The notes below the pieces were generated by a model. That model worked only from the letters and a program-made list of their open reading frames with translations, had not been told where the DNA came from and did no database searches. A stretch of 61,947 nucleotides of DNA, from the NCBI GenBank assembly GCA_902602795.1, contig CACKSF010000003.1:1-61947 (forward strand), given 5' to 3'. Origin of the DNA: an uncultured Fidelibacterota bacterium (GTDB taxonomy: Bacteria; Fidelibacterota; Marinisomatia; Marinisomatales; UBA1611). Positions 22,180 to 55,884 of this stretch are shown one piece after another. The position numbers and the translations under genes were made by a program. How positions within the stretch are numbered: position 1 is the first letter of the stretch; each line of letters starts with the position of its first letter.

Positions 22180-23499
22180 CTATTCCGATAATTTTCCTAG
22201 TCGTCTATATTTTTCTTTGTATTTCTCCCAGAGATCTTTTTGACGATCAGACAAATCGATTTCTTTTCCTTGGATAAATGCTTTAGTTGGATGGTTAGAT
22301 TGGGTTAAGGGCTCGTTGTCGGAAATAAAAAAAGTAGCATCTTTACCAAGATCTAAAGATCCAATCCGTTCATCAACACCAAGTATTTCAGCAGCAGATA
22401 GAGTAATAGCTCTAAGTGCTTGATCTTTTGTCAAACCCCAGGAAGCTGCCCTCATTGCCTCATCGGGTAATGTTCTTACATGCCCATCCATTGGGTAGCC
22501 AGGATCTAAAGATATACAAAAATGCACTCCTGACTTTTGTAGAATTGCAGGAACTTTATATGGGGTATGAATTGGCTCAAATCTACGTCTTGGTGTATTT
22601 TGTACGCCTAAAAGGATAACCGGAATATTTTTCTCTACAAGAATTTCAGGTATTCTCCATGCGTCTCCTCCACCGACGATTACAATATTAAGATCATGTT
22701 TTGTAGACCATTTTACAGCAGCCTCAATTTGTCTAACATTATTTGCTTTAATATGGATAGGTTCTTTGAAAACTATAAATGGAATCATGGATTCTAGTCT
22801 TAGATCAGATTTTTGCTTGTGTTCTGCTTTTCTTTCCTTGGCATTTTTTCGGTGGTGGTATGCTCGAACATCCCTTACTAAAAATTCCATCTCTCTAATT
22901 GCTTTATTGTATCCTTCTCTTTGTTCCTTTTCTTTTTTCTTTGCATCTTTTCTAAAGTCAAATCGCATAGAAGGCCAATTTAAATTTAAAGCACTAGGAT
23001 GTTTAAGCGTTGCATCTTCCCATGTCCATCCGTCCATATACATCACCGAGGATTGACCAGCGACTCTTCCTGAAGTAGGTGCTGAATTGACAGTTAATAC
23101 TCCATTGGATCTTGTAACTGGTATTAAGTCCGAATCTGGGTTATATGCTACATTTGCCCTTACATTTGGATTGATTTCGCCTATTTCGGAGTGGTCATTT
23201 GTTTGTTTTACCGCTGAAATTTCTGTGAGCCCAATTCTTGTATAACCGGCAATAAAACCAGGGATTACATGTTTCCCATAAATATCAAGCACATCTGTTT
23301 CTGGTGAAGGCTGAATCTGTTCGTCTATTGTTATGATTTTACCTTCAGCAAAGAGTAAGTCATGCTCTTCAAGAACATCTCCAGTCACAGTATGGAGCGT
23401 TCCTCCTCTAAGTAATATTGGCCTTTTTTGTTCTGTTCCTGGGATTTGATTGTTCCCAAACATTATTGAAAAAATTAGAGCTACAATTAGTTTTTTCAT
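22180..23499 (-). CDS. Exported amidohydrolase-fold protein, probably non-catalytic
   Basis: GKHVIPGFI...IGL, AITLSAAEILG, IGSLDLGKDA; HxH is replaced by YTR. Confidence 0.85.
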   Translation of the reverse strand: MKKLIVALIFSIMFGNNQIPGTEQKRPILLRGGTLHTVTGDVLEEHDLLFAEGKIITIDEQIQPSPETDVLDIYGKHVIPGFIAGYTRIGLTEISAVKQTNDHSEIGEINPNVRANVAYNPDSDLIPVTRSNGVLTVNSAPTSGRVAGQSSVMYMDGWTWEDATLKHPSALNLNWPSMRFDFRKDAKKKEKEQREGYNKAIREMEFLVRDVRAYHHRKNAKERKAEHKQKSDLRLESMIPFIVFKEPIHIKANNVRQIEAAVKWSTKHDLNIVIVGGGDAWRIPEILVEKNIPVILLGVQNTPRRRFEPIHTPYKVPAILQKSGVHFCISLDPGYPMDGHVRTLPDEAMRAASWGLTKDQALRAITLSAAEILGVDERIGSLDLGKDATFFISDNEPLTQSNHPTKAFIQGKEIDLSDRQKDLWEKYKEKYRRLGKLSE

Positions 23500-26400
23500 T
23501 GTACAAACTCCGCACCAAAGAGATCACTATCAATTATATCACAATTGTGCCCATGGTTCGGAGTCTCACTATTTGGTTTTATATCTTTTCCAGTATTAGG
23601 TGTCGTTGAATTCAATATTTTTTTAATTAAACTTTCACGAAGACCTTTGTCTCGATCTTCCATTTGGGCATTTTCATCTACTGACCAGTATCTTGTTCCA
23701 TCTATCCATGTTTCTTGGACCTTTGAGTAAATGGATAAAGGAGGGCCATCCCAGATAACAAAATCAGCATCCTTTTCTTCTTCTAAAGACCCTACCCATT
23801 TGTCGATTTTTAATTGCTTTGCAGGATTGATAGTTACAAAATGGAGAGCCTCTATTTCATCGAGCCCACCATATTTTATTGCTTTTGCGGCTTCCGTATT
23901 CATCCTGCGTGCTAACTCAGCATCGTCGCTATTGAAAGATACTAAAACGTTATTCTTTGCCATCATGGTTCCATTGTATGGTATAGCATCAATTACTTCA
24001 TACTTATATTGCCACCAGTCTGAAAAAGTAGAAGCGCCAGCACCATGTTCTGCCAGTCTCTCTGCTACTTTATAACCCTCTAAAACATGTTGGAAGGTTG
24101 CTATTGTAAATCCAAAATCTTCAGCAATTCGAGTAAGCATCCAAATTTCATCTTGTCGATAGGAGTGACAGTGTAGAAGCCTTTTCCCTTCTAAAATTTC
24201 GGCTAAAGCTTCTAACTCAAGATCAATTCTAGGTGGTATATTTTTCTTTTTTGCTTTTGAATTTCTTTCATACGTTTTTTGAACGTGACGATAGTCTTGT
24301 GCTGCACGGAATGCATCCCTAATTACTTGCTCCACTCCCATTCTAGTTTGAGGATACCTTCCTGTGCCTTGCCAGTTAGCCTGCTTTACGTTTTCGCCAA
24401 GGGCAAACTTGATACCTTGAGGAGCATTCTTAAATAGAAGTTCATCAGGAGCAGATCCCCAACGAAGCTTAATGACTGCATTTTGACCGCCAATAGGATT
24501 TGCTGAACCATGCAGAATATTTGCGGTGGTCAATCCTCCCCCTAATTGCCTATAAATATTGATATCATCGGAGTAAAGGACATCTTGAATTCTTACTTCC
24601 GCTGTTACGGACTGTGCTCCTTCATTTATGGATGATGCAGCAGAATGGCTATGACAATCAATTAGACCAGGAGTTACGTGTTTACCCATTCCATCAATAG
24701 TAAGAGCACTTCCAAGCGGAACACTAATGTCAGGTGCGATCTTGTCAATTTTACCATTTACAAATAGTATATCCCAGTCCTGTAGAATTCCTTTTGGGCC
24801 ACAAGTCCATATAGTAGCATTGTCAATTAAAATAGCGTTTGGAGTCAGTAAATCTTTACCTATACCATAAGATCCTTCTGGATAAAAAAGCTTTGTATTA
24901 CTCTTCAATTCTTTTGTTCTTTTTTTATCTTTACCTTTTGTTTCCCGTTTTGCTTTAAATGATTGTTGGGCACTTCCATCGAAAAATTTCCCTATTATTT
25001 TATCTTTGCTAATCTGTCCTTTGAATGCAAGCATCCCTTCTAGACTCAAAAAGGATCCATCAGCCTTGAATTCAATAGTGCTATCGTAGATCTCTATTTC
25101 ACTTACACTAGCATTTAAATCTTTACCTTGAATTACTCCTATTAACTTTTGTTTTTTATGAGTTGAAATGTTCCCCTTTTTACTTTCTTTTTTATTATCT
25201 GAAGTTTTAAATGATAATTCATATGATTTTCCAGATATCTCCAGTTTCCAATTACCCTTGAGTACGGTTTTATATCTATTGGCGACATAATATTCTTTTC
25301 CATTCATCCAAAGAGATGTTACCCTACTTTTGTTATCAAAGTAGTCACCATCTGTAACTACTAAATTGGCAAGGTATCCAGGCTGAATCTTGCCCATTAT
25401 TTTTTCGATTCCCATTGCCTCTGCAGGATAGGTTGTAAGTGCAGATAGAGCTACACTTTTAGGCAAACCTCGATCAATAATTTTCTGAAGATTTTTCCGA
25501 AATTCTTTTTTGTTTTTTAAAGTTGCAGAAGTGAAACTAAATCGAATGCCTTTTTCGAAAACTTTGTTGATATTATCAGGAGCCATATCCCAATGTTTTA
25601 ATTGTTCGGTAGAGTACTGCAGAGCTATGTGGGGATCTTTAACTTTTGGTTTAGAGGGAAATTCTAAGGGGAATATGATAAAAGGATTTAGCTCCACGAT
25701 TTCATTAAGTCTTCTATACTCATATCCGCTTCCTAAAAGCCACGGAGCAAGATTGAATTCATCTATAATCCTTAAAGCGCGAAGCGCTCCATGTTCTTCC
25801 TTTGTCATAAAAAGCATGGGTTTTCTATTTAATTGAAAATCTGCTAATTGACTTAGGCTAGGATGGAAAGGAATAAGCTTATTTTGTTCTGGATATTTTT
25901 CAATAATTTGGGTGGATTTTTGATACCAATTTGCATCAAGTAGAGTTTGTCGAATTACCGCAATAACTCCCAGAAGAGAATTAGGATAACTTCTGTCAGA
26001 CCACCCTGTTGTTTTGAATTCTATAATTTGAGCGACATCTTTTTTATATGATGTAAAATCATCGTCTAGAATAACCAGATCTGATTTACCTTTGAAAATG
26101 CCTTCTTCAGGAACAATGTGCACAGCTGTCAATCCCAATGCTCTGAGAGCTTTTAGTTCCTTTTCTTTTATTTTAAGATCATCTTTGGCGCGATAGTCTG
26201 CCTTTATTTTTTTGTTCCAATGTTCATCTGGGCTTATTGTTTTTTCATCTTTTTTAACCTCAAACCATCCGTCTATAAACCCGGGATATATATGAGCACC
26301 TTCAAGGTCAATTTCATATGCATCAAGAGGAATTTTTATATATCTACCAACTTTATCAATTCGACCATCTCGAATTACAACCGTAGCATCTTTAAGTGAA

Positions 26401-26531
26401 TCACCAGGCTCAGTGTGAATCATGGCATTGGTAAGTGCCCACACCCGCGGAGGGTTAACATGGATATCTTTCACTGGCTCGGTCTGCGCAAGTAAAAGAG
26501 AAAAGACTACTAAGTAAGGTTTTCTTATCAA
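23496..26531 (-). CDS. Exported two-domain amidohydrolase
   Basis: Two amidohydrolase repeats; the C-terminal one has DCHSH, HCHSYR, FQHVLE and NSDD. Confidence 0.9.
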   Translation of the reverse strand: MIRKPYLVVFSLLLAQTEPVKDIHVNPPRVWALTNAMIHTEPGDSLKDATVVIRDGRIDKVGRYIKIPLDAYEIDLEGAHIYPGFIDGWFEVKKDEKTISPDEHWNKKIKADYRAKDDLKIKEKELKALRALGLTAVHIVPEEGIFKGKSDLVILDDDFTSYKKDVAQIIEFKTTGWSDRSYPNSLLGVIAVIRQTLLDANWYQKSTQIIEKYPEQNKLIPFHPSLSQLADFQLNRKPMLFMTKEEHGALRALRIIDEFNLAPWLLGSGYEYRRLNEIVELNPFIIFPLEFPSKPKVKDPHIALQYSTEQLKHWDMAPDNINKVFEKGIRFSFTSATLKNKKEFRKNLQKIIDRGLPKSVALSALTTYPAEAMGIEKIMGKIQPGYLANLVVTDGDYFDNKSRVTSLWMNGKEYYVANRYKTVLKGNWKLEISGKSYELSFKTSDNKKESKKGNISTHKKQKLIGVIQGKDLNASVSEIEIYDSTIEFKADGSFLSLEGMLAFKGQISKDKIIGKFFDGSAQQSFKAKRETKGKDKKRTKELKSNTKLFYPEGSYGIGKDLLTPNAILIDNATIWTCGPKGILQDWDILFVNGKIDKIAPDISVPLGSALTIDGMGKHVTPGLIDCHSHSAASSINEGAQSVTAEVRIQDVLYSDDINIYRQLGGGLTTANILHGSANPIGGQNAVIKLRWGSAPDELLFKNAPQGIKFALGENVKQANWQGTGRYPQTRMGVEQVIRDAFRAAQDYRHVQKTYERNSKAKKKNIPPRIDLELEALAEILEGKRLLHCHSYRQDEIWMLTRIAEDFGFTIATFQHVLEGYKVAERLAEHGAGASTFSDWWQYKYEVIDAIPYNGTMMAKNNVLVSFNSDDAELARRMNTEAAKAIKYGGLDEIEALHFVTINPAKQLKIDKWVGSLEEEKDADFVIWDGPPLSIYSKVQETWIDGTRYWSVDENAQMEDRDKGLRESLIKKILNSTTPNTGKDIKPNSETPNHGHNCDIIDSDLFGAEFVQ

Positions 26532-27370
26532 AAATTTGGTCCTTTTAATTGGTTGGATTCTATAAAATTAGTGACATAATCGAAAGTATCATTTACGTCA
26601 TCAGAAATATGGAATAAGTCTAAATCTTCTTGAGATATAGTCCCAACTTCAACAAGGTAGTCCCAATTAACTACATTCTCCCAGAATTCCTTTCCATACA
26701 AAACAATGGGCAAAGGTTTTTTAATTTTTTGAGTTTGAATTAAAGTTAATAATTCCATTAGTTCATCTAAAGTTCCAAAACCTCCTGGCCATACAATTAA
26801 TCCTTTTGCTAGGTATAAGAACCAAAATTTACGCATAAAAAAGTAATGAAATTTTAAATTCAGATCATCTGATATCCATTCATTTTCTGATGACTCAAAA
26901 GGCAATGAAATGGTAAGGCCAACATTAATTCCATTTGCCTCTGAAGCTCCACGATTGGCAGCTTCCATAATGCCTGGACCTCCTCCAGAGCAAACAATGT
27001 ATCGATGTTTGCTATCTTTGAGGTCTTTACTCCAGGAGGTGAATTTGTTTGCCAAAGATCTTGCCTCCTCGTAGTAACGACTCATTTTAAGATCCATTTT
27101 TAGTTTTGAAATTATTCGATTATCTGATCCATCTGAATGGTTTTCAAGAGCTTTTTTTGCTTCTTCTTTAGATGGGATTCTAGCAGAGCCAAAGAAGACA
27201 ATGGTCTCGGATACATTATTTCTTTCCAACTTCTGTAAAGGGCCATAATATTCAGATAAGATTCTTAATGATCTTCCTTGAGAACTTCCAAGAAAATTGA
27301 AGTCATAGTAAAATCTATTTTTTTTATCGATTTTAGACATATTGTTTATTCCTTTTAAAGGTGATAACAA
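26528..27370 (-). CDS. LOG family protein (nucleotide monophosphate phosphoribohydrolase-like)
   Basis: VFFGSAR, GGGPGIMEAANRGA, YFFMRKFWF, PGGFGTLDE; likely start at 27340. Confidence 0.9.
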   Translation of the reverse strand: MLSPLKGINNMSKIDKKNRFYYDFNFLGSSQGRSLRILSEYYGPLQKLERNNVSETIVFFGSARIPSKEEAKKALENHSDGSDNRIISKLKMDLKMSRYYEEARSLANKFTSWSKDLKDSKHRYIVCSGGGPGIMEAANRGASEANGINVGLTISLPFESSENEWISDDLNLKFHYFFMRKFWFLYLAKGLIVWPGGFGTLDELMELLTLIQTQKIKKPLPIVLYGKEFWENVVNWDYLVEVGTISQEDLDLFHISDDVNDTFDYVTNFIESNQLKGPNF

Positions 27371-27459
27371 AATATAACTTTTGATGGTTCTAGGAAAGAT
27401 ATCTTTCTTTAGAAACTAATATATTGATTGAACAAATTCATTCTGGGTATCTTACACCA

Positions 27460-27801
27460 ATGCTTTTACGTCTATTTCTATTCGTTATTGTTTGTTCTTG
27501 TGTTTTTACACCTACTCCAAATCCAATATTAATACCTCCATTAAAAAAATCTTTAGGCGGGAAAAAGCAAAAAACAGTCTATACTTTAGGCTATATGTCA
27601 GAGTATGATATATGGGAGTTTTTAAAAGAAAACCCATCAGAGAAAGAGGTTCTAGATACTTTTGGCTTCCCTGATTCTATTTGGGTAGATGATTTAGAGA
27701 CTACAAAATTTTTGTATTATTTTATATCTGATATGCAAGACTTTAATACAATTGAAATAAGCGCAAAAACAGACAGTGTGTCTGGATTTGAATGGGACTA
27801 A
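27460..27801 (+). CDS. Hypothetical exported/lipoprotein
   Basis: Signal peptide (IVCSC); EVLDTFGFPD resembles SmpA/OmlA-like domains. ATG 27460 preferred over the ORF-track start at 27424. Confidence 0.6.
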   Translation: MLLRLFLFVIVCSCVFTPTPNPILIPPLKKSLGGKKQKTVYTLGYMSEYDIWEFLKENPSEKEVLDTFGFPDSIWVDDLETTKFLYYFISDMQDFNTIEISAKTDSVSGFEWD

Positions 27802-27804
27802 AAT

Positions 27805-28893
27805 ATGAAAAATAAAAAATTGTTGAATTATTCTGACTACCTACAGCTTGAAAAGATTTTATCAGGTCAGGAGCTAATGAGTGCTAAACGTGGTACTCCT
27901 GCTCATGATGAGATGCTATTTATTATTGTCCATCAAGTATATGAGCTTTGGTTTAAACAAATTTTACATGAGCTTGATTCAGTGATGTCTATCTTTAAAC
28001 AAGAATCTATTATTGAATCAGATATTAGTTTTGTAGTTTTGCGCTTACAGAGGATAATTGAAATACAGAAAATTCTTATTGATCAAATTAGAGTTTTAGA
28101 AACCATGACTGCGATGGATTTTCTAGAATTTAGAGATGATCTTTTTCCTGCTTCAGGTTTTCAGAGTGCACAGTTTAGGCTTATGGAAAACAAGCTAGGG
28201 CTTTTAAATGATCACAGAATTATGTACGGCGGAAAAAATTATACTTCTGTACTTAAAGAGCAAGAAAAATCAACTGTACAAAGTTCAGAAGAAGAAAAAT
28301 CACTTTTTGAATTACTTGAGTCTTGGTTGGAACGCACACCATTTTTATCCTTTAAGGGTTTTGATTTTTGGAAACAATATAGTAAAGCTGTTCGTTCCAT
28401 GTTAGAACAAGAAAAGCTTATAATACTAGATAATCCAAACTATTCGCAAGAAGAGGTTGAATACCATTTAAATGAGCATGAAAATGCTGTTCTGTCTTTT
28501 GAGGCCATGATTAATGAAGAAAGACATAATAAATTAATCGTAGATAGAAAAAAGAGATTATCTCATAAAGCTACACAAGCTTCTTTATTAATATTACTGT
28601 ACCGAGATGAGCCTATTCTCCATTCTCCATTCAATCTAATATCCCGACTAATTGATATGGATGAATTATTTACCTCGTGGCGACAGAGACATGCTTTGAT
28701 GGTTAGAAGGATGATCGGTGCTAAAATTGGTACAGGAGGTTCTTCAGGGCATAAATATTTACGAGAGGCAGCAGATAAGCATAAAATTTTTTCGGATTTG
28801 GCAGATCTTTCCACATTTTTTATTCCTAGGTCTGCTTTACCTGAGTTACCAACAGATATTAAACAAAATCTAGGATATCAATTTAAGCAATGA
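27805..28893 (+). CDS. kynA: Tryptophan 2,3-dioxygenase (long, eukaryote-like form)
   Basis: YSDYLQL, HDEMLFIIVHQVYELWFKQ, PASGFQSAQFR, WLERTP, RMIGAKIGTGGSSG. Confidence 0.97.
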   Translation: MKNKKLLNYSDYLQLEKILSGQELMSAKRGTPAHDEMLFIIVHQVYELWFKQILHELDSVMSIFKQESIIESDISFVVLRLQRIIEIQKILIDQIRVLETMTAMDFLEFRDDLFPASGFQSAQFRLMENKLGLLNDHRIMYGGKNYTSVLKEQEKSTVQSSEEEKSLFELLESWLERTPFLSFKGFDFWKQYSKAVRSMLEQEKLIILDNPNYSQEEVEYHLNEHENAVLSFEAMINEERHNKLIVDRKKRLSHKATQASLLILLYRDEPILHSPFNLISRLIDMDELFTSWRQRHALMVRRMIGAKIGTGGSSGHKYLREAADKHKIFSDLADLSTFFIPRSALPELPTDIKQNLGYQFKQ

Positions 28894-29678
28894 AACAATC
28901 ATTAATAAATAAACACGCTATCGTCTGTGGAAGTACAGATGGTATTGGAAAAGCATCTGCGTTACTTTTAGCAAAGCAAGGATGTGAAATCACTCTAGTC
29001 GCAAGGAATCAAGATAAGCTCGACAAAACGCAATCAGAGTTGAACACAAATCATAACCAGAAACATTATTCTGTTTGTGCTGATTTTGATAATTCGATGG
29101 ATCTTAAAAATAAAATAAAAATGCATTTAGGTTCTTTAGGTAGATCCGTTGATATTCTAGTTAATAACTCCGGAGGACCGCATGGTGGTCCACTCATTGA
29201 AGCAGATGAGGATGAATTTAGAGTTACTTTTGAAAGGTTGTTAATATGTAATCATATCATGGCAAAAGCAGTTGTTCCAGGCATGAAAGATAAAGGGGTA
29301 GGTAGGATTATCAATATAATTTCTACTTCTGTAAAACAGGTAATCCCAGGGTTGGGAGTCTCAAACACAATTAGGGGAAGCGTTGCTCAGTGGGGAAAGA
29401 CCTTGGCATTGGAGCTTGGGGAAAATGGAATTTGTGTGAATAACATTTTACCAGGATATACTGCAACGGATAGATTGAATTATTTAGCAGAGTCTAAGGC
29501 AAATTCTTTGGGCGTGGATATAGAATATATACGGAATCAATGGGCTGAAAATACTTCCCTTAAACGTATTGGGAATGTTAATGAAGTTGCGAACACAGTT
29601 TTATTTTTAGCCTCAGATGAATCAAGTTACGTAACGGGCCATAATTTTTCTGTAGATGGAGGCAGGTTTGGTGCCTGA
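28890..29678 (+). CDS. Atypical short-chain dehydrogenase/reductase in the kynurenine operon
   Basis: CGSTDGIG, VNNSGGP, VDGG; YxxxK is replaced by SNTIR. Confidence 0.9.
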   Translation: MKQSLINKHAIVCGSTDGIGKASALLLAKQGCEITLVARNQDKLDKTQSELNTNHNQKHYSVCADFDNSMDLKNKIKMHLGSLGRSVDILVNNSGGPHGGPLIEADEDEFRVTFERLLICNHIMAKAVVPGMKDKGVGRIINIISTSVKQVIPGLGVSNTIRGSVAQWGKTLALELGENGICVNNILPGYTATDRLNYLAESKANSLGVDIEYIRNQWAENTSLKRIGNVNEVANTVLFLASDESSYVTGHNFSVDGGRFGA

Positions 29679-29706
29679 CTTAAAAAATATTTTTTAAAAA
29701 CATTTT

Positions 29707-31152
29707 ATGTTAGAAATAGTAAATAACTTTATCAATGGAGAGTTTGTAGAGCCTCATAATAAAAAATATTTAGATATATATGAACCTGCGACAGGTTCTG
29801 TTTATGGTAAAGTTGCTGATTCATCAAGCCATGATATCAAAAGAGCAGTAGAGTCTGCTAAAAATGCTTTTCCTTATTGGTCTGGACTTTACATGGTAGA
29901 GAGGGGAGAGTATCTTAAAAAAATTGCTGTTGAAATAAAAAATAGATCTAATATTTTAGCAAAGTATGAATCTAGAGATACGGGCAAGCCAATTACTTTA
30001 GCAAGCAAAGTTGATATTCCAAGGGCAATTGAGAATTTTAATTTTTTTGCCAATTTTTCAGAAAATTTTTATTTTGAATCAAGTATCGAAAATGAAGTTT
30101 CTATTAACTCTGTTTCCAAAAAAGCTTTGGGCGTGGTTGGATGCATTTCCCCTTGGAATTTGCCTCTTTATCTTTTTACATGGAAGATTGCCCCAGCATT
30201 AATTGTTGGGAATACCGTGATAGCTAAACCATCTGAGATTACGCCTTATACTGCATCAAAATTAGCTGAAATTTGTTCGGATATTGGTCTGCCTAAAGGT
30301 GTTTTAAATATTGTAAATGGAACAGGCCGAATTGCTGGAGATTTAATAGTAAAAAATAAAAATATAAAAGCTATTTCATTTACAGGTGGGACAGTGACTG
30401 GCAAAAAAATTTATCAAAATTCATTTGATTCTTTTAAAAAATTGTCTTTGGAAATGGGTGGAAAGAATCCTGCCATAATCTTTGAAGATTGTGACTACGA
30501 ATCCATGCTAAAGACAGTTGTAAAATCCTCTTTTACAAATCAGGGACAGATTTGTCTATGTAGCTCCAGGATATTAGTGGAGAGCACCATATTTAAAAAA
30601 TTTAAAACTGATTTTTGCAATGTAATATCAGAATTGAAGCCTGGAGATCCTAAGGATGATAAAACAGAATTTGGCTCAATATCCTCTGAGAGCCAGTTCA
30701 AAAAAATAAAACATTATATAAATTTGGCAAAAAATGAGAGCGGTAATATTCTTTTAGGTGGTAAGGCTATACAGCTACAAGGTAGGTGCAAAAATGGTTG
30801 GTTTATTGAACCTACAGTAATTGAAGGATTAGGTAACAGAAGTTTATTGAACCAAGAAGAAATTTTTGGACCTGTGGTTACTATACAGTCATTTAAAACA
30901 GAAGAAGAAGCCATTGAAATTGCAAATGACACAAAATATGGATTATCTGCTACTATTTGGACTAACAGTCACAAGAAAAGCAATAGAGTTGCGAAAAATA
31001 TTGATGCAGGAGTAGTTTGGATTAATTGTTGGATGGTAAGAGATTTACGTACACCTTTTGGAGGAATGAAAGATTCTGGCTTGGGAAGGGAAGGTGGAGA
31101 AAGTGTTTTAAGATTTTTTACAGAACAAAAAACAATTTGTGAACCAAAATGA
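29707..31152 (+). CDS. 2-aminomuconate 6-semialdehyde dehydrogenase (ALDH8A1-like)
   Basis: SPWNLPLYLFTWKIAPA, LEMGGKNP, NQGQICLCSSR, EEIFGPV, WMVRDLRTPFGG; kynurenine context. Confidence 0.9.
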   Translation: MLEIVNNFINGEFVEPHNKKYLDIYEPATGSVYGKVADSSSHDIKRAVESAKNAFPYWSGLYMVERGEYLKKIAVEIKNRSNILAKYESRDTGKPITLASKVDIPRAIENFNFFANFSENFYFESSIENEVSINSVSKKALGVVGCISPWNLPLYLFTWKIAPALIVGNTVIAKPSEITPYTASKLAEICSDIGLPKGVLNIVNGTGRIAGDLIVKNKNIKAISFTGGTVTGKKIYQNSFDSFKKLSLEMGGKNPAIIFEDCDYESMLKTVVKSSFTNQGQICLCSSRILVESTIFKKFKTDFCNVISELKPGDPKDDKTEFGSISSESQFKKIKHYINLAKNESGNILLGGKAIQLQGRCKNGWFIEPTVIEGLGNRSLLNQEEIFGPVVTIQSFKTEEEAIEIANDTKYGLSATIWTNSHKKSNRVAKNIDAGVVWINCWMVRDLRTPFGGMKDSGLGREGGESVLRFFTEQKTICEPK

Positions 31153-31508
31153 AACCAAAGTTTGATAAACATATTTTTATTTGTACAAATGATAGAGGTC
31201 CTGATCACCCTAGGGGAGATTGTGTCAAATGCGGGGGGCTTGATATTAGAATGCGATTCGTCCATCTAATAAATAAGCACGGTTTAAAAGGAAAAGTAAG
31301 AGCAAATAAAAGTGGTTGTTTGGATGTATGCGAAATTGGGCCTGCAGTTGTAATTTATCCAAAGAATATTTGGTATACAGGAATTACTATTAAAGATGTA
31401 GATGAAATATTTGAAAAATCAGTATTGAAAAATGAAGTAGTTAATCATTTAGCCTCTAGCGAGCAAGATTGGATGTTACTCAAGGATCTAAGAAAAAAGA
31501 AAAAATGA
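31149..31508 (+). CDS. Thioredoxin-like [2Fe-2S] ferredoxin
   Basis: HIFICTN...RGDC...SGCLDVCEIGP...YP..IWY. Confidence 0.9.
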   Translation: MKPKFDKHIFICTNDRGPDHPRGDCVKCGGLDIRMRFVHLINKHGLKGKVRANKSGCLDVCEIGPAVVIYPKNIWYTGITIKDVDEIFEKSVLKNEVVNHLASSEQDWMLLKDLRKKKK

Positions 31509-31921
31509 ATAAAAAAATAAATTCTAGCAGTGCACCAGAACCAGTAGGGAGCTACCCTCATACAAGAAAAGTAGGAAACTTATTATTTTTATCTGGAGTA
31601 GGCCCCAGAAAGCCAGGAACAAAAGTAATCCCAGGTGTTATGGTGGATGGGCAAGGAAATCCTCTTGGACATGATATAGAGATCCAGTGCCACTCTGTAT
31701 TTAAAAATGTTAAAATTATTTTAGAGGAGACAGGAAGTCATTGGAATAACCTAGTTGATGTAACTGTATTTTTAACAAATATGAAGAGAGATTTTGAAAT
31801 ATATAATTCAATTTATTCAGAATATTTTAAAGATAATCAGCCCTGTAGAACAACAGTTGAGGTAGTATCCTTACCAACTCCAATTGCGATTGAATTAAAA
31901 TGCATAGCAACAATTGACTAG
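31505..31921 (+). CDS. Rid/YjgF family protein, probable 2-aminomuconate deaminase
   Basis: GSYPH, LFLSGVGPR, PCRTTVEV..LPTPIAIELK; ATG 31505 overlaps the ferredoxin stop. Confidence 0.88.
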   Translation: MNKKINSSSAPEPVGSYPHTRKVGNLLFLSGVGPRKPGTKVIPGVMVDGQGNPLGHDIEIQCHSVFKNVKIILEETGSHWNNLVDVTVFLTNMKRDFEIYNSIYSEYFKDNQPCRTTVEVVSLPTPIAIELKCIATID

Positions 31922-31929
31922 AAGTATTT

Positions 31930-32445
31930 ATGAACTTGCTTCCTCCTATTAATTTTAAGAACTGGATTGAAAAGAATAGGCATCTTCTAAAGCCTCCTGT
32001 TGGAAACAAAGTTGTCTATGAAAATAGTGATTTTATGATCATGGTAGTAGGAGGGCCTAACTCACGAAAGGATTATCATGTGGATCCAGTAGAAGAATTC
32101 TTCTACCAAGTAGAGGGTGATATGGTCCTTAAAGTTATGGAAAACCATAAAAGGATTGATATTACTATTAAAGAAGGAGAAATATTTTTATTACCAAAAA
32201 ATATTCCGCATTCGCCTCAGAGGCTTCAGAATACAGTAGGGCTAGTGATCGAGTATAAAAGGGAGGAAGGGGCTTTAGACAGTTTTCAATGGTATTGTGA
32301 GCAATGTGATAATCTTCTTCATGAAGTAACACTAGATTTGGAAGACATAGTTACTCAACTTCCCCCATTATTTGATTCTTATTGGAATGACATTCAAGCG
32401 AGAACTTGTGTTAAATGTGGCTCTACTCAGAATCCTCCAAACTGA
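31930..32445 (+). CDS. nbaC: 3-hydroxyanthranilate 3,4-dioxygenase
   Basis: KPPVGNK, GGPNSRKDYH, EEFFYQ, PHSPQR, rubredoxin-like CEQC/CVKC. Confidence 0.97.
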   Translation: MNLLPPINFKNWIEKNRHLLKPPVGNKVVYENSDFMIMVVGGPNSRKDYHVDPVEEFFYQVEGDMVLKVMENHKRIDITIKEGEIFLLPKNIPHSPQRLQNTVGLVIEYKREEGALDSFQWYCEQCDNLLHEVTLDLEDIVTQLPPLFDSYWNDIQARTCVKCGSTQNPPN

Positions 32446-32451
32446 TTTATT

Positions 32452-33459
32452 TTGGTTGTAGACATACATACTCATATTCTTCCAAAAGATCTTCCTGATT
32501 TGGAGAAAAAGTTTGGATATGGTGGTTGGATACGTCTAGATCCCAATCCTAATGGAACTGCAAATATGATAAAGGATGGGAAGCAGTTTCGTGTAGTAGA
32601 GTGTAATTGCTGGGATCCTATTGCTAGGTTAGAGGACTGTCGCAAAAGTGGTGTCGATTTGCAAGTGCTTTCCACAATACCTGTTATGTTTAGCTATTGG
32701 GCACAACCAAAGCATACTCATATACTTTCAAGAATGCTTAATGATGATATAGCTGAGACTATTCAAGAAAACCCCAAAAAGTTTGTAGGCTTAGGTACAA
32801 TTCCAATGCAAGATGAGAAACTAGCAATAAAAGAGTTGGAAAGGTGTATCCAAGAGCTAGGATTATCTGGTGTGCAGATTGGATCAAATATTAATGGAGA
32901 GAATCTGAGTTCTCCTAACTTTTATTCAATATTTGAAGCGGCATCGGATTTAGGTGCCTCTATATTTGTGCATCCTTGGGACATAATGGGGAAAAATCAG
33001 ATGGAAAAATATTGGTTGCCGTGGTTAGTAGGTATGCCAGCAGAAACAAGTAGAGCTATTTGCTCAATGATATTTGGTGGTGTATTTGAAAAATTACCAA
33101 AACTAAGAGTGGCATTTGCTCATGGAGGCGGAGCATTCCCAGCAACTATTGGTAGAATTCAACATGGCTTTGATTCTCGTCCAGATCTTTGTGCTATTGA
33201 TAATAATGTGGATCCCATTAACTATTTAGGAAAATTTTGGATTGATTCGTTGGTACATGACATTGATATGCTGAAGTTTCTTATAAATAAAATTGGTAGC
33301 ACAAGAATTGCTATGGGATCGGATTATCCATTCCCTCTTGGCGAAACGGAACCAGGATCTCTTATCAAGAATTCAAATCTTACCAAAGAGAATAAAGAAA
33401 ATCTTCTTTATAAGAGCGCAATTGACTGGTTAGCATTAAAAAACACTTTTTTTGAATGA
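32452..33459 (+). CDS. nbaD: 2-amino-3-carboxymuconate 6-semialdehyde decarboxylase (ACMSD)
   Basis: [53 protein letters not shown]. Confidence 0.95.
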
Positions 33460-34697
33460 AGTACGAAAAATCAGAAGCATTTGCGCAACATCTTGACGAA
33501 ACAGATAAGCTTGCAAAACACCGTAACGATTTTTTTTATCCAAAAGATAATAACAATAATGAATTGATATATTTTGCTGGTAATTCTTTAGGACTTCAGC
33601 CTAAAAAAGTTTCAGATTATTTAACAAAAGAATTGTGTCTTTGGTCGGAAAAGGGTGTGCTTGGACAGGAAGAAAGATGGATCGAGTATCATGAGAAATT
33701 TAATGAATCTACCGCAAAATTAGTTGGTGCATTACCTTCAGAAGTAGTTGTAATGAATGCATTAACCTTAAATATTCACCTGCTTTTGATTTCTTTTTAT
33801 CAACCATGCGAAGCTAAATACAAAATAATCATTGAAAAGGATGCTTTTCCTTCGGACTACTATGCAGTGCAGAGCCAAATAAAATTACATGGATTTGAAC
33901 CCAAAAAAGCATTGATAGAACTCACTCCAAGAGTAGGCGAAAAAATTTTACGCCACGACGATATTTTTGCAACAATTGAATCTCACAGAGACGAAATTGC
34001 TTTGATTTACTTAGGGGGAGTTAACTATTACACCGGACAGTCTTTTAACTTAAAAGAAATAGCAAAAGTCGGTAGAAAAAATGGATCAATAGTTGGATTT
34101 AATCTTGCACACAGTGCAGGTAATTTGTTACTGCGCTTACATGATTGGGACGTAGATTTTTCTGCATGGTGCACATATAAATACCTTTGTGCTGGTCCTG
34201 GAAGTCCATCGGGTGTTTTTGTTCACAAGCGGCATCATAAATGGAATGGTCCTAGGTTGCTTGGTTGGTGGGGAAATAATAAAGATTCTAGATTTGAAAT
34301 GTCATCTACATTTGACCCTATTAATACTGCTGAAGGTTGGCAAATTAGCAATGCACCTATTATGGGTATGGCTCCTCTTTTAGCTGCTATGAATATTTAC
34401 AGCAAGGCTGGGATGAATTCAATTCGGGAAAAAGGGGAAAATATCTCGTTTTATATGGAATTTTTAATTCATCAACAGATACCATCTGTCCATATTATCA
34501 CACCAGAGGATAGAGGATGTCAACTTTCTCTGGTAGTACCTAAAGGAAAGAAGATACATGATTATCTCTTAAAAAAAGGTGTAATTTGTGATTGGAGAAA
34601 TCCTGATGTAATCCGAGTTGCCCCACATCCATTATATAACTCGTATGTTGAGGTGTTTAATTTTGTAAAAATTTTAAAGGATGCGATTGAAAACTAA
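33456..34697 (+). CDS. kynU: Kynureninase
   Basis: [26 protein letters not shown] (PLP Lys), GWWG, RGCQLS. Confidence 0.97.
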
Positions 34698-36012
34698 AGA
34701 ACATATTTCTCTTATTGGCGCAGGTTTATCTGGCCCCGTAATGGCATCCTATTTGTCATCAATAGGTTTTTCAACTGATATATACGAATCGAGATCAGAT
34801 ATGAGAACAAATTTATTATCAGCAGGAAGATCTATAAATCTTGCTTTGTCTGTTAGAGGCATTAAGGCTTTAAAAGATATAGGTGTTTATGAAAAAATTA
34901 AACCAACTCTCATACCTATGAGTGGGCGCATGATTCATGATGCTAATGGGGATGTACATCTTCAGCCTTACGGTCAAAAAAAGAATGAAGTTATTTATTC
35001 AGTATCAAGATCAAATTTGAATAAAATCTTGATGGATTATGCAGAAAGCACCTACAGTGTAAATTTTAATTTTGATCATCAATTACAAGATATTGATTTA
35101 AATAAACTGACATTACGTTTCCAGAATAAGGATATACCTTTTAATAGAATTTTAGGCTCTGATGGCGCATCTTCAAAAGTAAGAGATTTTATAAGTGAAA
35201 ATTCAGATGCCTCTTTTTTAAAAAAACCTTTAGGGCATGGATACAAAGAGCTTACGATTATTCCAAATAATAATGGTGAATTTCAACTAGACAGTAGTTC
35301 TTTGCATATTTGGCCCCGAGGAGAATTCATGCTGATTGCCTTACCAAATTTTGATCGATCTTTTACTTGCACATTATTTTTGCCAATGGAAGGAGATAAT
35401 AGTTTTTCTTATCTCGATTCAGAAAAAAAGGTGTTTAAATTTTTTAAAAAATATTTTCCGGATACCTTGCAATTGATCTCAGATATTCCAGGGGAATATC
35501 ATAAAAAACCTGTTGGGAAATTAGGCTCTATATATTGCAGTAAGTGGCATTATAATGACCGTGCCGCAATTTTTGGAGATGCTGCTCATACTATTGTTCC
35601 GTTTTTTGGACAAGGTATGAATGCGTCCTTACAAGATTGTACGGTAATGCATTCCTTTGTAAAGAGATATGACGGCAATTGGGATAAAATATTTAAAAGT
35701 TTTTCAGAAAAACATGTCCCTAATGGACATGCAATAGCTGATATGGCTTTAGAAAACTATATTGAAATGCGAGATTCTGTCAATGATCCCAAATATAAAA
35801 TCAAAAGGGAGTTAGAGTTTGAATTAGAAAATAAATTTTGGGATCGTTTTGTTCCAAGATATTCAATGGTCTCTTTCCATGATCTACCATATTTAGAAGT
35901 ATATAGAAGAGGTCAAGTTCAATCCAAATTAATGCATTCATTTATATTAGGTGATTTGACAAAGAAAAAATTGTACGAGCAGATAGAGTCAAAGTTAACT
36001 CCAATACGATGA
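34681..36012 (+). CDS. kmo: Kynurenine 3-monooxygenase
   Basis: GRSINLALSVRG, HGYKEL, LHIWPRG, GDAAHTIVPFFGQGMN, ALENYIEMRD. Confidence 0.96.
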   Translation: MRLKTKEHISLIGAGLSGPVMASYLSSIGFSTDIYESRSDMRTNLLSAGRSINLALSVRGIKALKDIGVYEKIKPTLIPMSGRMIHDANGDVHLQPYGQKKNEVIYSVSRSNLNKILMDYAESTYSVNFNFDHQLQDIDLNKLTLRFQNKDIPFNRILGSDGASSKVRDFISENSDASFLKKPLGHGYKELTIIPNNNGEFQLDSSSLHIWPRGEFMLIALPNFDRSFTCTLFLPMEGDNSFSYLDSEKKVFKFFKKYFPDTLQLISDIPGEYHKKPVGKLGSIYCSKWHYNDRAAIFGDAAHTIVPFFGQGMNASLQDCTVMHSFVKRYDGNWDKIFKSFSEKHVPNGHAIADMALENYIEMRDSVNDPKYKIKRELEFELENKFWDRFVPRYSMVSFHDLPYLEVYRRGQVQSKLMHSFILGDLTKKKLYEQIESKLTPIR

Positions 36013-48005: not shown

Positions 48006-48617
48006 GTGAAAATATCTGTAATTATACTGGCAGCTGGTGGTTCTAAAAGAATGGGTGAATTCAATAAGTTGCTTCTTTTAATTGATGGTAAGCCAATGAT
48101 ACACTTAGTCTGTAAAATGGTGTTAGGTGCAAGAGTTAATCAAATAATTTTAGTCACAGGATATCAGAACAACAAAATTGAAAAATCTATACCCAAGGGA
48201 ATTAATACAATTGTACATAATAGAAAATGGGAAAGCGGTATGATGAGCTCTATCTGTGCTGGAATGTCTAGACTTGATAAGGATGTTGAAGGGAGTATGA
48301 TTGTTCTTGGAGACATGCCCTTAATTAGTACGATAACAATTAATAGGATTATTGAAGAATTTAATAAACATAGTGGGAAGCATATAATATATCCTGAATA
48401 TAATAATAGACAAGCTAACCCTGTCATTTTCCCAAGAAAATATTTTCCAGAAATCATAAAGTCAAAGGGCGATAGTGGGTGCAAAAAAGTATTAAAAAAA
48501 TATCCTGGAGATGCCGTGGGTATTCCTATCAATACCGATGAAGTCATTATTGATTGCGATACTAGAGATGATTATCTTTTGGTAGAAAAGAAATTACTAA
48601 ACAATGTCCAGACATAA
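48006..48617 (+). CDS. mocA: Molybdenum cofactor cytidylyltransferase
   Basis: ILAAGGSKRMG..KLLL, LGDMP, NPVIF, GDSG; adjacent to xdhC. Confidence 0.85.
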   Translation: MKISVIILAAGGSKRMGEFNKLLLLIDGKPMIHLVCKMVLGARVNQIILVTGYQNNKIEKSIPKGINTIVHNRKWESGMMSSICAGMSRLDKDVEGSMIVLGDMPLISTITINRIIEEFNKHSGKHIIYPEYNNRQANPVIFPRKYFPEIIKSKGDSGCKKVLKKYPGDAVGIPINTDEVIIDCDTRDDYLLVEKKLLNNVQT

Positions 48618-49395
48618 AGAGTTGTTTCAAACCATAGCTAGGTTAGAGTCTAAAGAAATTCCTTATGCAATTGCTTCTGTTTTTCAAGTGCATGGTTCTT
48701 CTTCAGGTAAAGTAGGAGACAAAGCAATATTTGATGAAAAGGGTAAAAGAATTATTGGTTATGTTGGAGGTGGTTGCATTGAAAATCGTGTAGGTGCAAC
48801 TGCTAAAGAATCATTGATAGATGGTTTGCCCAAAAAAATTGAAATAGACTTAGATAGTGACGAAATAGAAATGGGTATACCATGTGGAGGATATATGTCA
48901 GTAATTGTTGAACCTCAAATGTTAAACAAAACCTTTTTGATTAGAGGGATGGGTGGACTTTCGGAAATTTTATGTGAAATGGCAAGTCTGTTAAAGTTTA
49001 AAGTTATTGTGCAAACATCAGAAGAAGAGAAAGAAAGATACCCTAGCGCAGCAAAAATAATTACTGATATGCTCGAATTAGAAGACATTGATTTTCATGT
49101 TGATTATTTCATTTTAGCTACTCATCATAGTAATGATGATAGAATTAGCCTTGAAGCTTTAAAGAAAGGCATTCCTTATGTAGGCGTCGTTGCAAGTGCA
49201 AAAAAAACTGGCATAATTTTAGAGTATCTTAAAAAAAATGGAGTAACAGAAAAAGAATTAGAGCACTTTTTTTCTCCTACTGGGTTAGAATTAAATGCCA
49301 AAACTCCTGAACAAATTGCATTAAGTATTCTATCCGAAATGGTCATGCTTGAAAATGGTGGATCCGGAAAACAAAAAAAATCTATTATCAAGTAA
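48604..49395 (+). CDS. xdhC: XdhC/CoxI family molybdoenzyme maturation factor
   Basis: GYVGGGCIE, GIPCGG, ATH, PTGLELNAKTPEQIALSI. Confidence 0.9.
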   Translation: MSRHKELFQTIARLESKEIPYAIASVFQVHGSSSGKVGDKAIFDEKGKRIIGYVGGGCIENRVGATAKESLIDGLPKKIEIDLDSDEIEMGIPCGGYMSVIVEPQMLNKTFLIRGMGGLSEILCEMASLLKFKVIVQTSEEEKERYPSAAKIITDMLELEDIDFHVDYFILATHHSNDDRISLEALKKGIPYVGVVASAKKTGIILEYLKKNGVTEKELEHFFSPTGLELNAKTPEQIALSILSEMVMLENGGSGKQKKSIIK

Positions 49396-49399
49396 TTAG

Positions 49400-50578
49400 A
49401 TGGCTGATCCTATATATTTAGATAATCAGGCTACTACACCATTAGATCCAGAAGTTATGGATGCTATGCTACCTTTTTTTCATGAAAAATTTGGGAATGC
49501 ATCTAGTATTCATCATTATTATGGTTTGGAGTCAAAAAAAGCAGTGGAAAAATCTCGTCAAGTATTATCTAAAAGTATTAAAGCAAATAAAAGAGAAATT
49601 ATTTTTACTAGTGGAGCAACTGAGGCTATCAATCTAGCAATAAAAGGGGTTGCAGGTACTTTTAGTAAGAAACATCATATGATCACTCAAGCTACGGAGC
49701 ATAGTGCTGTTTTAGATACGTTTAAATCAATCGAAAAAAAAGGGTGGGATATTTCTATTCTTCCAGTAAATCAAAATGGGGAGGTTGATCCTCAGGATGT
49801 TGCTGATGCAATTAGGGAGGAGACGGTTTTAGTTGCTATTATGCATGCCAATAATGAGATTGGAACTATTCAACCTATAGAAAAAATTGGAGAAATTTGT
49901 AGAGGAAATAATATTCTATTTTTTGTGGATGCTTGTCAGACATTTGGAAAATTAGAAATAAATGTTAGAGATATGAAAATTGATCTTCTAGCTGCTACTG
50001 CTCATAAACTATATGGCCCAAAAGGTATTGGATTTCTTTATGTTTGCCAGAAAGATCCAAAGGTTGCTTTAGAAATGCAAATGGATGGAGGAGGACATGA
50101 AAGAGGATACAGATCGGGTACTCTTCCCGTGCCACTAATTGTAGGCTTTTCTAGAGCAGCGGAAATCTGTATTCAAAAAAGAGAATATGAGTATCATTCT
50201 TTAGGAAAATTTCGCGATCTTCTATTGAATGGAATTAAAGATAAGCACTCTGAAGTAATATTAAATGGGAATATTGAAAACGGTTTATCTCATAATCTAA
50301 ATCTTTGTTTTCCAAATTTAGAGGCAGAAACCATAATAATGAAAATGAGAGGAATCGCCTGTTCTGCTGGATCTGCATGTACCAGTAATAGTTTAGAGCC
50401 CTCTCATGTTATTAAAGCATTAGGCCGTAATAATGAATTGGCGCATTCTGCTATTAGATTTAGTGTTGGAAGGTTTACTACACAAACAGATATAAAAAAA
50501 GCTATTCTTGAAATAAATAATGTAGTGAGTTTTTTAAAGTCGAAAAGAGAAAAGAGAATAAAAAAAACTTTTCAATAG
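49400..50578 (+). CDS. iscS: Cysteine desulfurase (IscS/NifS type)
   Basis: YLDNQATTP, FTSGATE, AHKLYGPKG, RSGT, SAGSACTS. Confidence 0.92.
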   Translation: MADPIYLDNQATTPLDPEVMDAMLPFFHEKFGNASSIHHYYGLESKKAVEKSRQVLSKSIKANKREIIFTSGATEAINLAIKGVAGTFSKKHHMITQATEHSAVLDTFKSIEKKGWDISILPVNQNGEVDPQDVADAIREETVLVAIMHANNEIGTIQPIEKIGEICRGNNILFFVDACQTFGKLEINVRDMKIDLLAATAHKLYGPKGIGFLYVCQKDPKVALEMQMDGGGHERGYRSGTLPVPLIVGFSRAAEICIQKREYEYHSLGKFRDLLLNGIKDKHSEVILNGNIENGLSHNLNLCFPNLEAETIIMKMRGIACSAGSACTSNSLEPSHVIKALGRNNELAHSAIRFSVGRFTTQTDIKKAILEINNVVSFLKSKREKRIKKTFQ

Positions 50579-50631
50579 TTGTATTATGTAATAATCAAAT
50601 ATGGATTTCGTAAAACAATTATCTTTTAACC

Positions 50632-50745
50632 AAAAAACCTATGTTTAGCTTGTAATATGGTTGATGGCCGGTAGGGTTTTAATGAAGATGTTAAAACTGG
50701 CTCCTGATTTCTGCTCTTTGGTAGAGTGTATTGGAATGAAAATGA
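50632..50745 (+). ncRNA. Possible degenerate Moco RNA motif (riboswitch) in the moaA leader
   Basis: Elements in the order expected for the Moco motif: AACCTATGT...ATATGGTT, GGCC, AGGG, stem GTTTTAAT-GAAGAT-GTTAAAAC, CTCC. The outer P1/P5 elements are not clearly seen. Confidence 0.45.
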
Positions 50746-50746
50746 A

Positions 50747-51769: not shown

Positions 51770-51771
51770 GT

Positions 51772-55642: not shown

Positions 55643-55884
55643 TAAAAATAAGATTAAAGTGTTTTTCTCAGGTAAAGTATGCACTTGGTACAAATGAAAT
55701 CATCTTCGAATTAGAGGACGAGACTTTTACAGATGATCTAGAAAAATTAGTTCGTAAAAAGGCGGAAGGTAAGTTAGATAATGTAACACTAAGTACCGCT
55801 GTAAATAAAAAATATATATCAAAAAACATAGAACTTGTAGATGGTGATGAAGTAGCTTTTATTCCTCCTGTGCAGGGCGGATAA
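55639..55884 (+). CDS. moaD: Molybdopterin synthase sulfur carrier subunit
   Basis: AVN...DGDEVAFIPPVQGG C-terminus. Confidence 0.95.
   Translation: MIKIRLKCFSQVKYALGTNEIIFELEDETFTDDLEKLVRKKAEGKLDNVTLSTAVNKKYISKNIELVDGDEVAFIPPVQGG

Follow-up and report, generated by a model that had tools for sequence, protein, structure and literature searches.

Introduction

The closest described systems differ in how they dispose of 2-aminomuconate, an unstable intermediate of tryptophan breakdown. In the nba/amn-type pathway of Burkholderia and Pseudomonas, 3-hydroxyanthranilate 3,4-dioxygenase (HAO), ACMSD, a dehydrogenase and a Rid deaminase lead to the same deaminated C6 intermediate as is proposed below, which is then decarboxylated and, by aldol cleavage, converted into pyruvate and acetaldehyde. 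In humans, ASPDH has been described as a 2-aminomuconate reductase with L-2-aminohex-3-enedioate as its product, in a June 2026 preprint (10.64898/2026.06.05.730449). Here, we compare with these systems a kynurenine operon of an uncultured Fidelibacterota bacterium, carried on contig CACKSF010000003.1 (the window, the whole stretch of 61,947 nucleotides that was analysed), and in particular an atypical short-chain dehydrogenase/reductase (SDR) encoded in it. This SDR is a candidate NADPH-dependent reductase of 2-oxohex-3-enedioate ('oxalocrotonate') that would act after Rid, yield 2-oxoadipate and replace the meta-cleavage branch, and we put the chances for and against this function at about equal.

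The step in question has a long-standing name. 'Oxalocrotonate reductase' is still drawn as the step to 2-oxoadipate in a 2026 review (PMC12899273), and our literature search found no gene assigned to the reduction of 2-oxohex-3-enedioate (4-oxalocrotonate) to 2-oxoadipate in bacteria or fungi. An earlier note on this DNA, made from the sequence alone, had regarded the reductase gene as not firmly assigned. This holds for the bacterial step, for which no assigning paper was found, but not for the animal step, which the preprint assigns to ASPDH. According to the preprint, fungi have a Rid-type deaminase, and in eukaryotes ASPDH and the deaminase exclude each other; it mentions neither SDRs nor Bacteroidota. 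An SDR gene syntenic with 3-hydroxyanthranilate clusters has been described in fungi (PMC7842363).

The assembly to which the window belongs, as contig C3, measures 1.38 Mb and is 59% complete. The closest relatives of the window are metagenome-assembled genomes (MAGs) labelled as Candidatus Neomarinimicrobiota, a phylum also named Marinimicrobia or Fidelibacterota and called Marinimicrobia below.

A Tyr-less SDR clade with its own signature

The protein matches the Pfam families adh_short_C2 (8.8e-43) and adh_short (1.5e-33), both over cut-off, and keeps the classical SDR hallmarks GSTDGIG (residues 14-20) and NNSGGP (NNSGG at 92-96). Around the usual catalytic motif it reads ISTSVK...PGLGVS158-N-T-I-R162GSV. 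Aligned with YxxxK, Tyr is replaced by Ser (S158) and Lys by Arg (R162) throughout the clade, and the catalytic Ser-Tyr-Lys set is incomplete. S158, N159 and R162 are invariant across 26 diverse homologues, and most of the 70 representatives examined show the motif as well, so it is no product of chance degeneration. The unusual motif is a clade signature. The description in the earlier note, an SDR with SNTIR in place of YxxxK that is translationally coupled to the gene for tryptophan 2,3-dioxygenase (TDO), is thus confirmed: residues 158-162 carry the motif, and the TDO stop and the SDR start share ATGA at 28890-28893.

The elements NNxGGP and LGVSNT(I/V)RxAVxxWxKTL are kept in homologues down to about 40% identity, with W168 nearly invariant, and R39, after strand 2, is invariant in the clade alignment. 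Among 1.8 billion representatives searched, identity to the SDR is 40-50% in the closest clusters from outside Marinimicrobia. A quick maximum-likelihood tree (118 rows) splits the clade from ten outgroup SDRs at SH-aLRT 99. Scores against the clade profile A1 are bimodal (340-387 versus 263 bits or less), and we defined the clade operationally by at least 340 bits, clearly above the paralogue class; the SDR of the window scores 377 bits. A search of the ESM Atlas returned bacterial SDR clusters only and nothing informative. A 428-aa homologue, P0134, was considered as an SDR fusion and rejected: its N-terminal 174 residues match no family or operon protein, and it is probably an over-extended open reading frame (ORF) in GC-rich DNA.

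Database annotation points to a more conventional enzyme. Relatives are annotated as '3-oxoacyl-[ACP] reductase' or 'SDR family oxidoreductase' and many NCBIfam SDR models match weakly, which would suit an ordinary carbonyl reductase or dehydrogenase, forming for example a 2-hydroxy acid from 2-oxoadipate or 2-oxohexenedioate, or a 3-oxoacyl-ACP reductase. Yet every NCBIfam SDR model stays far under its cut-off (FabG model TIGR01830, 134.5 bits versus 297.75, with the FabG models all scoring under half of what they require), and with the catalytic Tyr and Lys absent as well, membership in FabG fails. The operon and the phyletic pattern are, moreover, unrelated to fatty-acid synthesis, and we consider such a function very unlikely.

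Fold and nearest characterised relatives

An AlphaFold model of the SDR, built with 26 homologues, reached a pLDDT of 93.3. The top Foldseek matches to it are AerF (6jha/6jhb, with NADPH and 4-hydroxyphenylpyruvate according to the entry titles; TM 0.93), three uncharacterised Burkholderia SDRs with NADP(H), and YwfH/BacG (3u4c). AerF and BacG entries hold ranks 1, 2, 5 and 6, and TM values to the listed SDR structures range from 0.83 to 0.93. The clade profile ranks the PDB similarly, with AerF first (1.7e-70), YwfH seventh (2.3e-59) and all FabG-type SDRs lower; between YwfH and the FabG-type enzymes stand only sorbose reductase and one uncharacterised SDR.

AerF resembles the clade in its Ser at the catalytic Tyr position, its bound NADPH and its 2-oxo-acid ligand, at 31-32% identity. 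It differs in having Asn at the position of R162 and Gly at that of N159, and, as an enzyme of secondary metabolism, it has a cyclic dihydro-hydroxyphenylpyruvate as its substrate; it is not found in kynurenine clusters. BacG (YwfH) of the Bacillus subtilis bacilysin pathway (PDB 3u49/3u4c) belongs to the same SDR branch and is NADPH dependent (Foldseek rank 6, TM 0.91), but is 27% identical and has another substrate in another pathway. In the BacG reaction, hydride is delivered to C4. BacG reduces the conjugated C=C bond of a 2-oxo acid, converting dihydro- (H2HPP) into tetrahydro-hydroxyphenylpyruvate (H4HPP), according to a review (PMC9147277). Because AerF and BacG both reduce a C=C bond conjugated to a 2-oxo acid, their chemistry is the same as that of a conversion of 2-oxohex-3-enedioate into 2-oxoadipate.

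A further group comprises the Burkholderia SDRs 5va8, 5idx/5idy and 5vps (SNGAR), the TM1169-type 1o5i (SNSAR) and APE0912 (2z1n). It binds NADP(H), and the Burkholderia and TM1169-type members share SN-x-x-R and NNAGGP with the clade; unlike the clade, the group is without W168 and scores 191-235 bits in genomes, against 340-387 bits. This class also occurs in HAO-bearing genomes that have no kynurenine-linked SDR. From sequence and model, the SDR of the window is placed in the Tyr-less AerF/BacG branch of the SDR superfamily. Its cofactor would be NADPH, as the invariant R39 and the NADP(H) in the nearest structures suggest.

Genomic association with the kynurenine pathway

Homologous loci were compared in a set of 87: seven from close relatives and, out of at least 597 pattern matches, the 80 best, which include culturable carriers such as Olleya, Dokdonia and Winogradskyella isolates. 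Within 8 kb of the SDR, one or more kynurenine genes occur in 59 of the 87 loci and three or more in 44, and one is directly adjacent in 49; among the 53 loci flanked by 5 kb or more on each side, the first two counts are 43 and 35. The commonest direct neighbour is the aldehyde dehydrogenase gene (ALDH, 35 loci), followed by HAO (23), TDO (8) and ACMSD (8), and a Rid deaminase gene accompanies the SDR in 34 loci. The SDR-bearing loci span at least four phyla (Marinimicrobia, Bacteroidota, Pseudomonadota and Calditrichota) and differ in gene order: KYNU-KMO-Rid-ALDH-SDR-HAO-ACMSD in Flavobacteriaceae, TDO-SDR-ALDH-Rid-HAO-ACMSD-KYNU-KMO in Marinimicrobia and two Gammaproteobacteria (KYNU, kynureninase; KMO, kynurenine 3-monooxygenase). 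When the 1136 ORFs neighbouring the SDR in the 87 loci were clustered, the recurrent families included no meta-cleavage gene and no other conserved partner; apart from the kynurenine genes, they reflected only synteny within lineages (an O-methyltransferase in 22 loci, peptidases and others). Four Bacteroidota and one Methylocaldum MAG with an SDR cluster were searched for meta-cleavage genes; four of the five genomes had none, and the remaining one had a single sub-threshold hydratase-like match on another contig. These data support the view that the SDR belongs, as a conserved and clade-specific component, to the gene clusters of the lower kynurenine pathway in several phyla.

Neighbourhood alone is no proof, and part of this association comes from closely related Flavobacteriaceae, as might be seen if the SDR were a passenger without a role in the pathway, kept in place by synteny or moved with the cluster in horizontal transfer. 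Against this, the association persists across differing gene orders and several phyla, it holds at genome level where the genes are unlinked, and the SDR excludes the alternative decarboxylase branch (below), which leaves a passenger gene barely credible. Among nine genomes whose SDR locus lacks kynurenine neighbours, seven have HAO elsewhere.

Co-occurrence and exclusion in Pseudomonadota

HAO scored above cut-off in 30 genomes of an evenly drawn sample of 401 Pseudomonadota. Of these 30, 12 carried an SDR at 340-387 bits against the clade profile, 14 had paralogues only (191-235 bits) and four had nothing at E<=1e-55. At E<=1e-80, with the six best first-look candidates scored per genome, the SDR was found in 12 of the 30 HAO-bearing genomes versus none of the 371 without HAO. 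The 4-oxalocrotonate decarboxylase family (TIGR03218, E<=1e-20) was present in nine of the 30, and none of these nine was SDR-high. In the sample searched, the SDR and the 4-oxalocrotonate decarboxylase are mutually exclusive; the branch typical of nba/amn-type pathways and the SDR never occur together in these 30 genomes.

The neighbourhoods of HAO, examined in 29 of these cases and at locus L068, show the same division. ACMSD and/or ALDH with Rid lie beside HAO in 14 genomes: 11 are SDR-high without the decarboxylase, whereas in the other three (G437, G490 and G504), which have no SDR, a decarboxylase-family gene is adjacent. G430, the one SDR-high genome outside these 11, carries SDR-ALDH-Rid at a second locus, as does G378. 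Rid is present in all nine Pseudomonadota clusters with an adjacent SDR. In the rest of the HAO-bearing genomes, the 10-kb neighbourhood shows the arrangement of NAD synthesis, HAO by itself or HAO-KYNU-KMO. Three related gammaproteobacterial genomes carry the SDR separately from the kynurenine cluster. At the two of these loci that were scanned (L156:7443-8246 and L158:8102-8947), it adjoins a divergent alpha/beta-hydrolase with the fold of animal arylformamidase, which could be a formamidase.

The earlier note had suggested testing whether this SDR clade co-occurs with ACMSD, dehydrogenase and Rid genes and anti-correlates with meta-cleavage genes. Both patterns are seen in the Pseudomonadota sample, but co-occurrence falls short in the phylum of the window itself, where seven of the 15 SDR-bearing genomes have HAO.

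HAO-bearing relatives and orphan SDRs in Marinimicrobia

Among 151 Marinimicrobia genomes, each at least 80% complete, HAO was found in seven, and all seven carry the SDR. In five near-complete HAO-bearing relatives, the SDR is 49-56% identical to that of the window and lies on the HAO contig in three. The PF01557 members of these five are fumarylacetoacetase, HpaG-like or YcgM-like proteins, and none matches the decarboxylase or hydratase models at 1e-10; the fumarylacetoacetases adjoin HPPD and homogentisate-dioxygenase-like genes. For the aldolase, the best model score in the five is 74 bits versus a cut-off of 286. The situation in the window is alike. Scanning of its 58 ORFs gave no PF01557 (4-oxalocrotonate decarboxylase/hydratase) member and no 4-hydroxy-2-oxovalerate aldolase-like ORF, and PF01557 has zero matches across the whole assembly, itself 59% complete. 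The earlier description of the operon as lacking meta-cleavage genes stands. The genome of the window does encode an orthologue of glutaryl-CoA dehydrogenase: nine of its ten best PDB matches are so named (E 1e-140 to 1e-112), the human enzyme among them (9e-113).

Several observations weigh against the proposed function, above all the SDRs that occur without the pathway. A high-scoring SDR is present in 15 of the 151 Marinimicrobia (one as a partial copy at the end of a contig, the other 14 with at least 356 bits), and eight of these 15, each 95-97% complete, are without HAO. The same eight have no ALDH orthologue (best identity 31-42%, versus 59-63% in two HAO-bearing controls); TDO occurs in one of them, kynureninase in two and neither in six. 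Their orphan SDRs are full length, keep the signature and occupy the same syntenic locus, with K149 (the Lys of S-x-S-V-K) replaced in two. An intact SDR in genomes without the pathway means that a role without 2-aminomuconate exists or is possible, and in Marinimicrobia the presence of the SDR cannot be equated with the pathway. Further points concern the samples and the end of the route: the 80 loci are the best of at least 597 matches rather than a random draw, and related genomes are not independent; the 401-genome count rests on six first-look candidates per genome; and glutaryl-CoA dehydrogenase serves lysine breakdown too.

The orphan loci share synteny with the window (LOG-family gene / unk125 ... 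SDR ... Rpe-Tkt-RpiB), with ALDH, Rid, HAO and ACMSD missing, and exist in several states: SDR alone, SDR-ferredoxin, SDR with kynureninase and ferredoxin, and TDO-SDR-KYNU. The last is seen in G103 (L185:9011-12101), a TDO-SDR-kynureninase unit without HAO, ACMSD, ALDH and KMO that would take tryptophan only to anthranilate, with the SDR retained. In G133 (L183), a weak match to the last 40 TDO residues (19 bits, E 8e-4) lies directly 5' of the SDR (G133:C41:29448-29564) and could be what operon decay has left. The tree places four orphans basally and five inside a branch (support 98), among Marinimicrobia SDRs linked to the operon. We read the orphans as the outcome of repeated decay of a complete operon that left the SDR behind. 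Its survival would reflect either a second substrate or recent losses of the pathway.

A broader activity is one alternative. The SDR might be a general reductase of enones or conjugated 2-oxo acids, with 2-oxohex-3-enedioate as one substrate or a minor one and its place in the operon a case of recruitment. Eight Marinimicrobia that keep it intact without HAO or an ALDH orthologue, six of them also without TDO and kynureninase, are what such an enzyme might leave, and the separate position of the gene in the three gammaproteobacterial genomes fits too. A ferredoxin gene lies near the SDR in four of the eight orphan genomes and directly adjoins it in two, at L184:1594-1944 and L186:9682-10023 without kynurenine genes, and a functional SDR-ferredoxin link is possible. 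Restriction of the clade to HAO-bearing Pseudomonadota, never together with the decarboxylase family, speaks against a general reductase, as do the resemblance of the orphan loci to decayed operons (same flanks, and the TDO remnant of G133) and the nesting of five orphans among operon-linked SDRs. On balance, we hold this broader activity to be unlikely.

Proposed pathway

The predicted substrate, product, cofactor and order of steps of the pathway are as follows. TDO, a KynB-type formamidase encoded elsewhere, KMO, kynureninase, HAO, ACMSD and ALDH would convert tryptophan into 2-aminomuconate. Rid would hydrolyse the imine tautomer of 2-aminomuconate to 2-oxohex-3-enedioate (2-hydroxymuconate / 4-oxalocrotonate), and the SDR would then transfer hydride from NADPH to C4, with a proton added at C3, to give 2-oxoadipate, which would enter the glutaryl-CoA route. 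This reductase branch would substitute for the decarboxylase/hydratase/aldolase meta-cleavage branch of Burkholderia-type clusters. The earlier note had likewise proposed a C=C reductase leading to 2-oxoadipate. That proposal is favoured by the genomic context, the AerF/BacG relatives and the exclusion of the decarboxylase, and is weakened by the survival of the SDR without the pathway in eight of the 15 SDR-bearing genomes of its own phylum.

Reduction might instead precede or take the place of deamination, with the SDR acting like ASPDH as an enamine/imine reductase that converts 2-aminomuconate into 2-aminohex-3-enedioate or 2-aminoadipate. Animals treat the same unstable intermediate by NAD(P)H-dependent reduction, as the preprint describes (10.64898/2026.06.05.730449), the ASPDH family (PF01958) had no match in the genome of the window or in the four near-complete HAO-bearing relatives (of five) that were searched, and the SDR usually adjoins the dehydrogenase that produces 2-aminomuconate. 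Still, Rid travels with the SDR (34 of 87 loci, and nine of nine SDR-adjacent clusters in Pseudomonadota), and beside Rid a second enzyme consuming 2-aminomuconate would be redundant. In eukaryotes, moreover, reductase and deaminase are mutually exclusive according to the same preprint, and the nearest characterised relatives of the SDR act on 2-oxo acids, not enamines. We judge a 2-aminomuconate reductase quite improbable.

For the preferred order, Rid and then the SDR, the comparison with animals is partial. Like the proposed SDR, metazoan ASPDH/AMR performs an NAD(P)H-dependent reduction of a conjugated C6 intermediate just after the ALDH step. Unlike it, ASPDH has the aspartate dehydrogenase fold (PF01958/PF03447) and acts on the amine to give 2-aminohex-3-enedioate, according to the preprint; and where eukaryotic ASPDH excludes the Rid deaminase, Rid and the SDR co-occur here. 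A Rid deaminase is a feature that the operon has in common with fungi and Burkholderia. The label 'eukaryote-like' given to the route in the earlier note should therefore be dropped, since the preprint assigns the animal 2-aminomuconate reductase to ASPDH, of a different fold, and the operon carries Rid instead. The route is better named a bacterial 'deaminate, then reduce' variant. It stands an even chance of being a third, previously undescribed solution to the unstable 2-aminomuconate, found in bacteria, in which Rid is followed by a Tyr-less SDR, meta-cleavage is excluded, and the genes are spread over Bacteroidota, Marinimicrobia, Gammaproteobacteria and other phyla.

Operon organization and surroundings

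The kynurenine operon consists of ten head-to-tail genes on the + strand (27424-36012; Table 1). Four-base overlaps as at the TDO/SDR junction are also found at the ALDH/ferredoxin, ferredoxin/Rid and ACMSD/kynureninase junctions.

Table 1. Genes of the kynurenine operon in the window, with the basis of each assignment.
Feature	Position	Strand	Basis and remarks
125-aa ORF (unk125), hydrophobic N-terminus	27424..27801	+	no Pfam/NCBIfam match; directly 5' of TDO
Tryptophan 2,3-dioxygenase (TDO)	27805..28893	+	PF03301, 8.7e-108, nearly whole profile covered
Tyr-less SDR (P0001), 262 aa, candidate NADPH-dependent 2-oxohex-3-enedioate reductase	28890..29678	+	Pfam, motif, fold, context
Aldehyde dehydrogenase (ALDH), 2-aminomuconate/2-hydroxymuconate semialdehyde dehydrogenase type	29707..31152	+	PF00171, 5.1e-159
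Thioredoxin-like [2Fe-2S] ferredoxin, 119 aa	31149..31508	+	NF041612, 1.1e-21, under cut-off
Rid/YjgF protein, probable 2-aminomuconate deaminase	31505..31921	+	PF01042, 4.5e-25; TIGR00004, 98 bits
3-Hydroxyanthranilate 3,4-dioxygenase (HAO)	31930..32445	+	NF009763, 261 bits, and TIGR03037, 243.7 bits, both above cut-off
ACMSD-type amidohydrolase_2 decarboxylase	32452..33459	+	PF04909, 1.4e-36; place 3' of HAO conserved
Kynureninase (KYNU)	33456..34697	+	TIGR01814, 413 bits, above cut-off
FAD monooxygenase, kynurenine 3-monooxygenase (KMO) by position and family	34681..36012	+	PF01494; place 3' of kynureninase conserved

The position of unk125 is kept in related Marinimicrobia, where it lies 5' of TDO or of the SDR (L001-L005, L179 and L181). 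For ALDH, the top NCBIfam model is TIGR03216, at 512 bits under its cut-off of 693. The ferredoxin gene is a lineage-specific insert in the operon, present in L001, L004 and L005 and absent from L006/L007. The Rid frame is open from a TTG at 31469; the ATG at 31505, which overlaps the ferredoxin stop, is the likely start, judging from sequence and tblastn limits.

The absence of a formamidase from the operon is accounted for by a KynB-type cyclase-family gene elsewhere in the genome, unlinked to the operon (G000:C43:328-711). All four HAO-bearing relatives searched have a KynB-type gene as well, and the SDR as the missing formamidase was thereby ruled out. In G148, the KynB-type gene is located within the kynurenine cluster, and in another Marinimicrobia lineage TDO is preceded by a gene of the cyclase family, a KynB-type formamidase (L006:8115-8903 and four other loci).

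Fragments of the operon occur in two seawater runs labelled as metatranscriptomes, as contigs of 150-290 nt that are 90-100% alike, one of them spanning the TDO/SDR junction. Such contigs cannot show transcription; one of the two runs is probably DNA, and the fragments count neither for nor against expression.

The region 5' of the operon (1-22177) contains haem uptake genes (TonB-dependent receptors, HmuY-like, FecCD/ABC transporter and a haem-degrading-type PNPOx/DUF2470 protein) beside a near-complete run of haem biosynthesis genes (hemC/D-like, hemE, hemH, hemF, UPF0093 (HemJ-type) and hemB). TDO is a haem enzyme, and the position of haem genes upstream of it may be either coincidence or co-regulation. 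Between them and the operon, and divergent from the latter, 22180-27370 (- strand) encodes amidohydrolases of 439 aa and 1011 aa (the second with two amidohydrolase modules) and a LOG/TIGR00730-family protein; this block is syntenic in relatives, including those without kynurenine genes. Further downstream, a molybdenum-cofactor cluster (48006-56301; MobA-like, XdhC, MoaA, MoaC/MogA fusion, MoeA, ThiF/MoeB and MoaE) is broken by a TauE/SafE exporter gene and adjoined by a class-V aminotransferase gene.

Significance

The gap in the animal pathway was filled in 2026 by an unrelated enzyme with a different product, which makes a bacterial answer timely. If the proposed function is true, the SDR would supply a gene for the textbook 'oxalocrotonate reductase' and define a kynurenine-to-glutaryl-CoA route, and its survival without the pathway would point to a second substrate. 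If confirmed, the function would allow thousands of 'FabG-like' genes to be re-annotated correctly and would offer candidate chemistry for the fungal pathway. It would also bring central catabolism into the range of the small AerF/BacG class of Tyr-less SDR ene-reductases, and metabolic models could then route marine tryptophan carbon to glutaryl-CoA.

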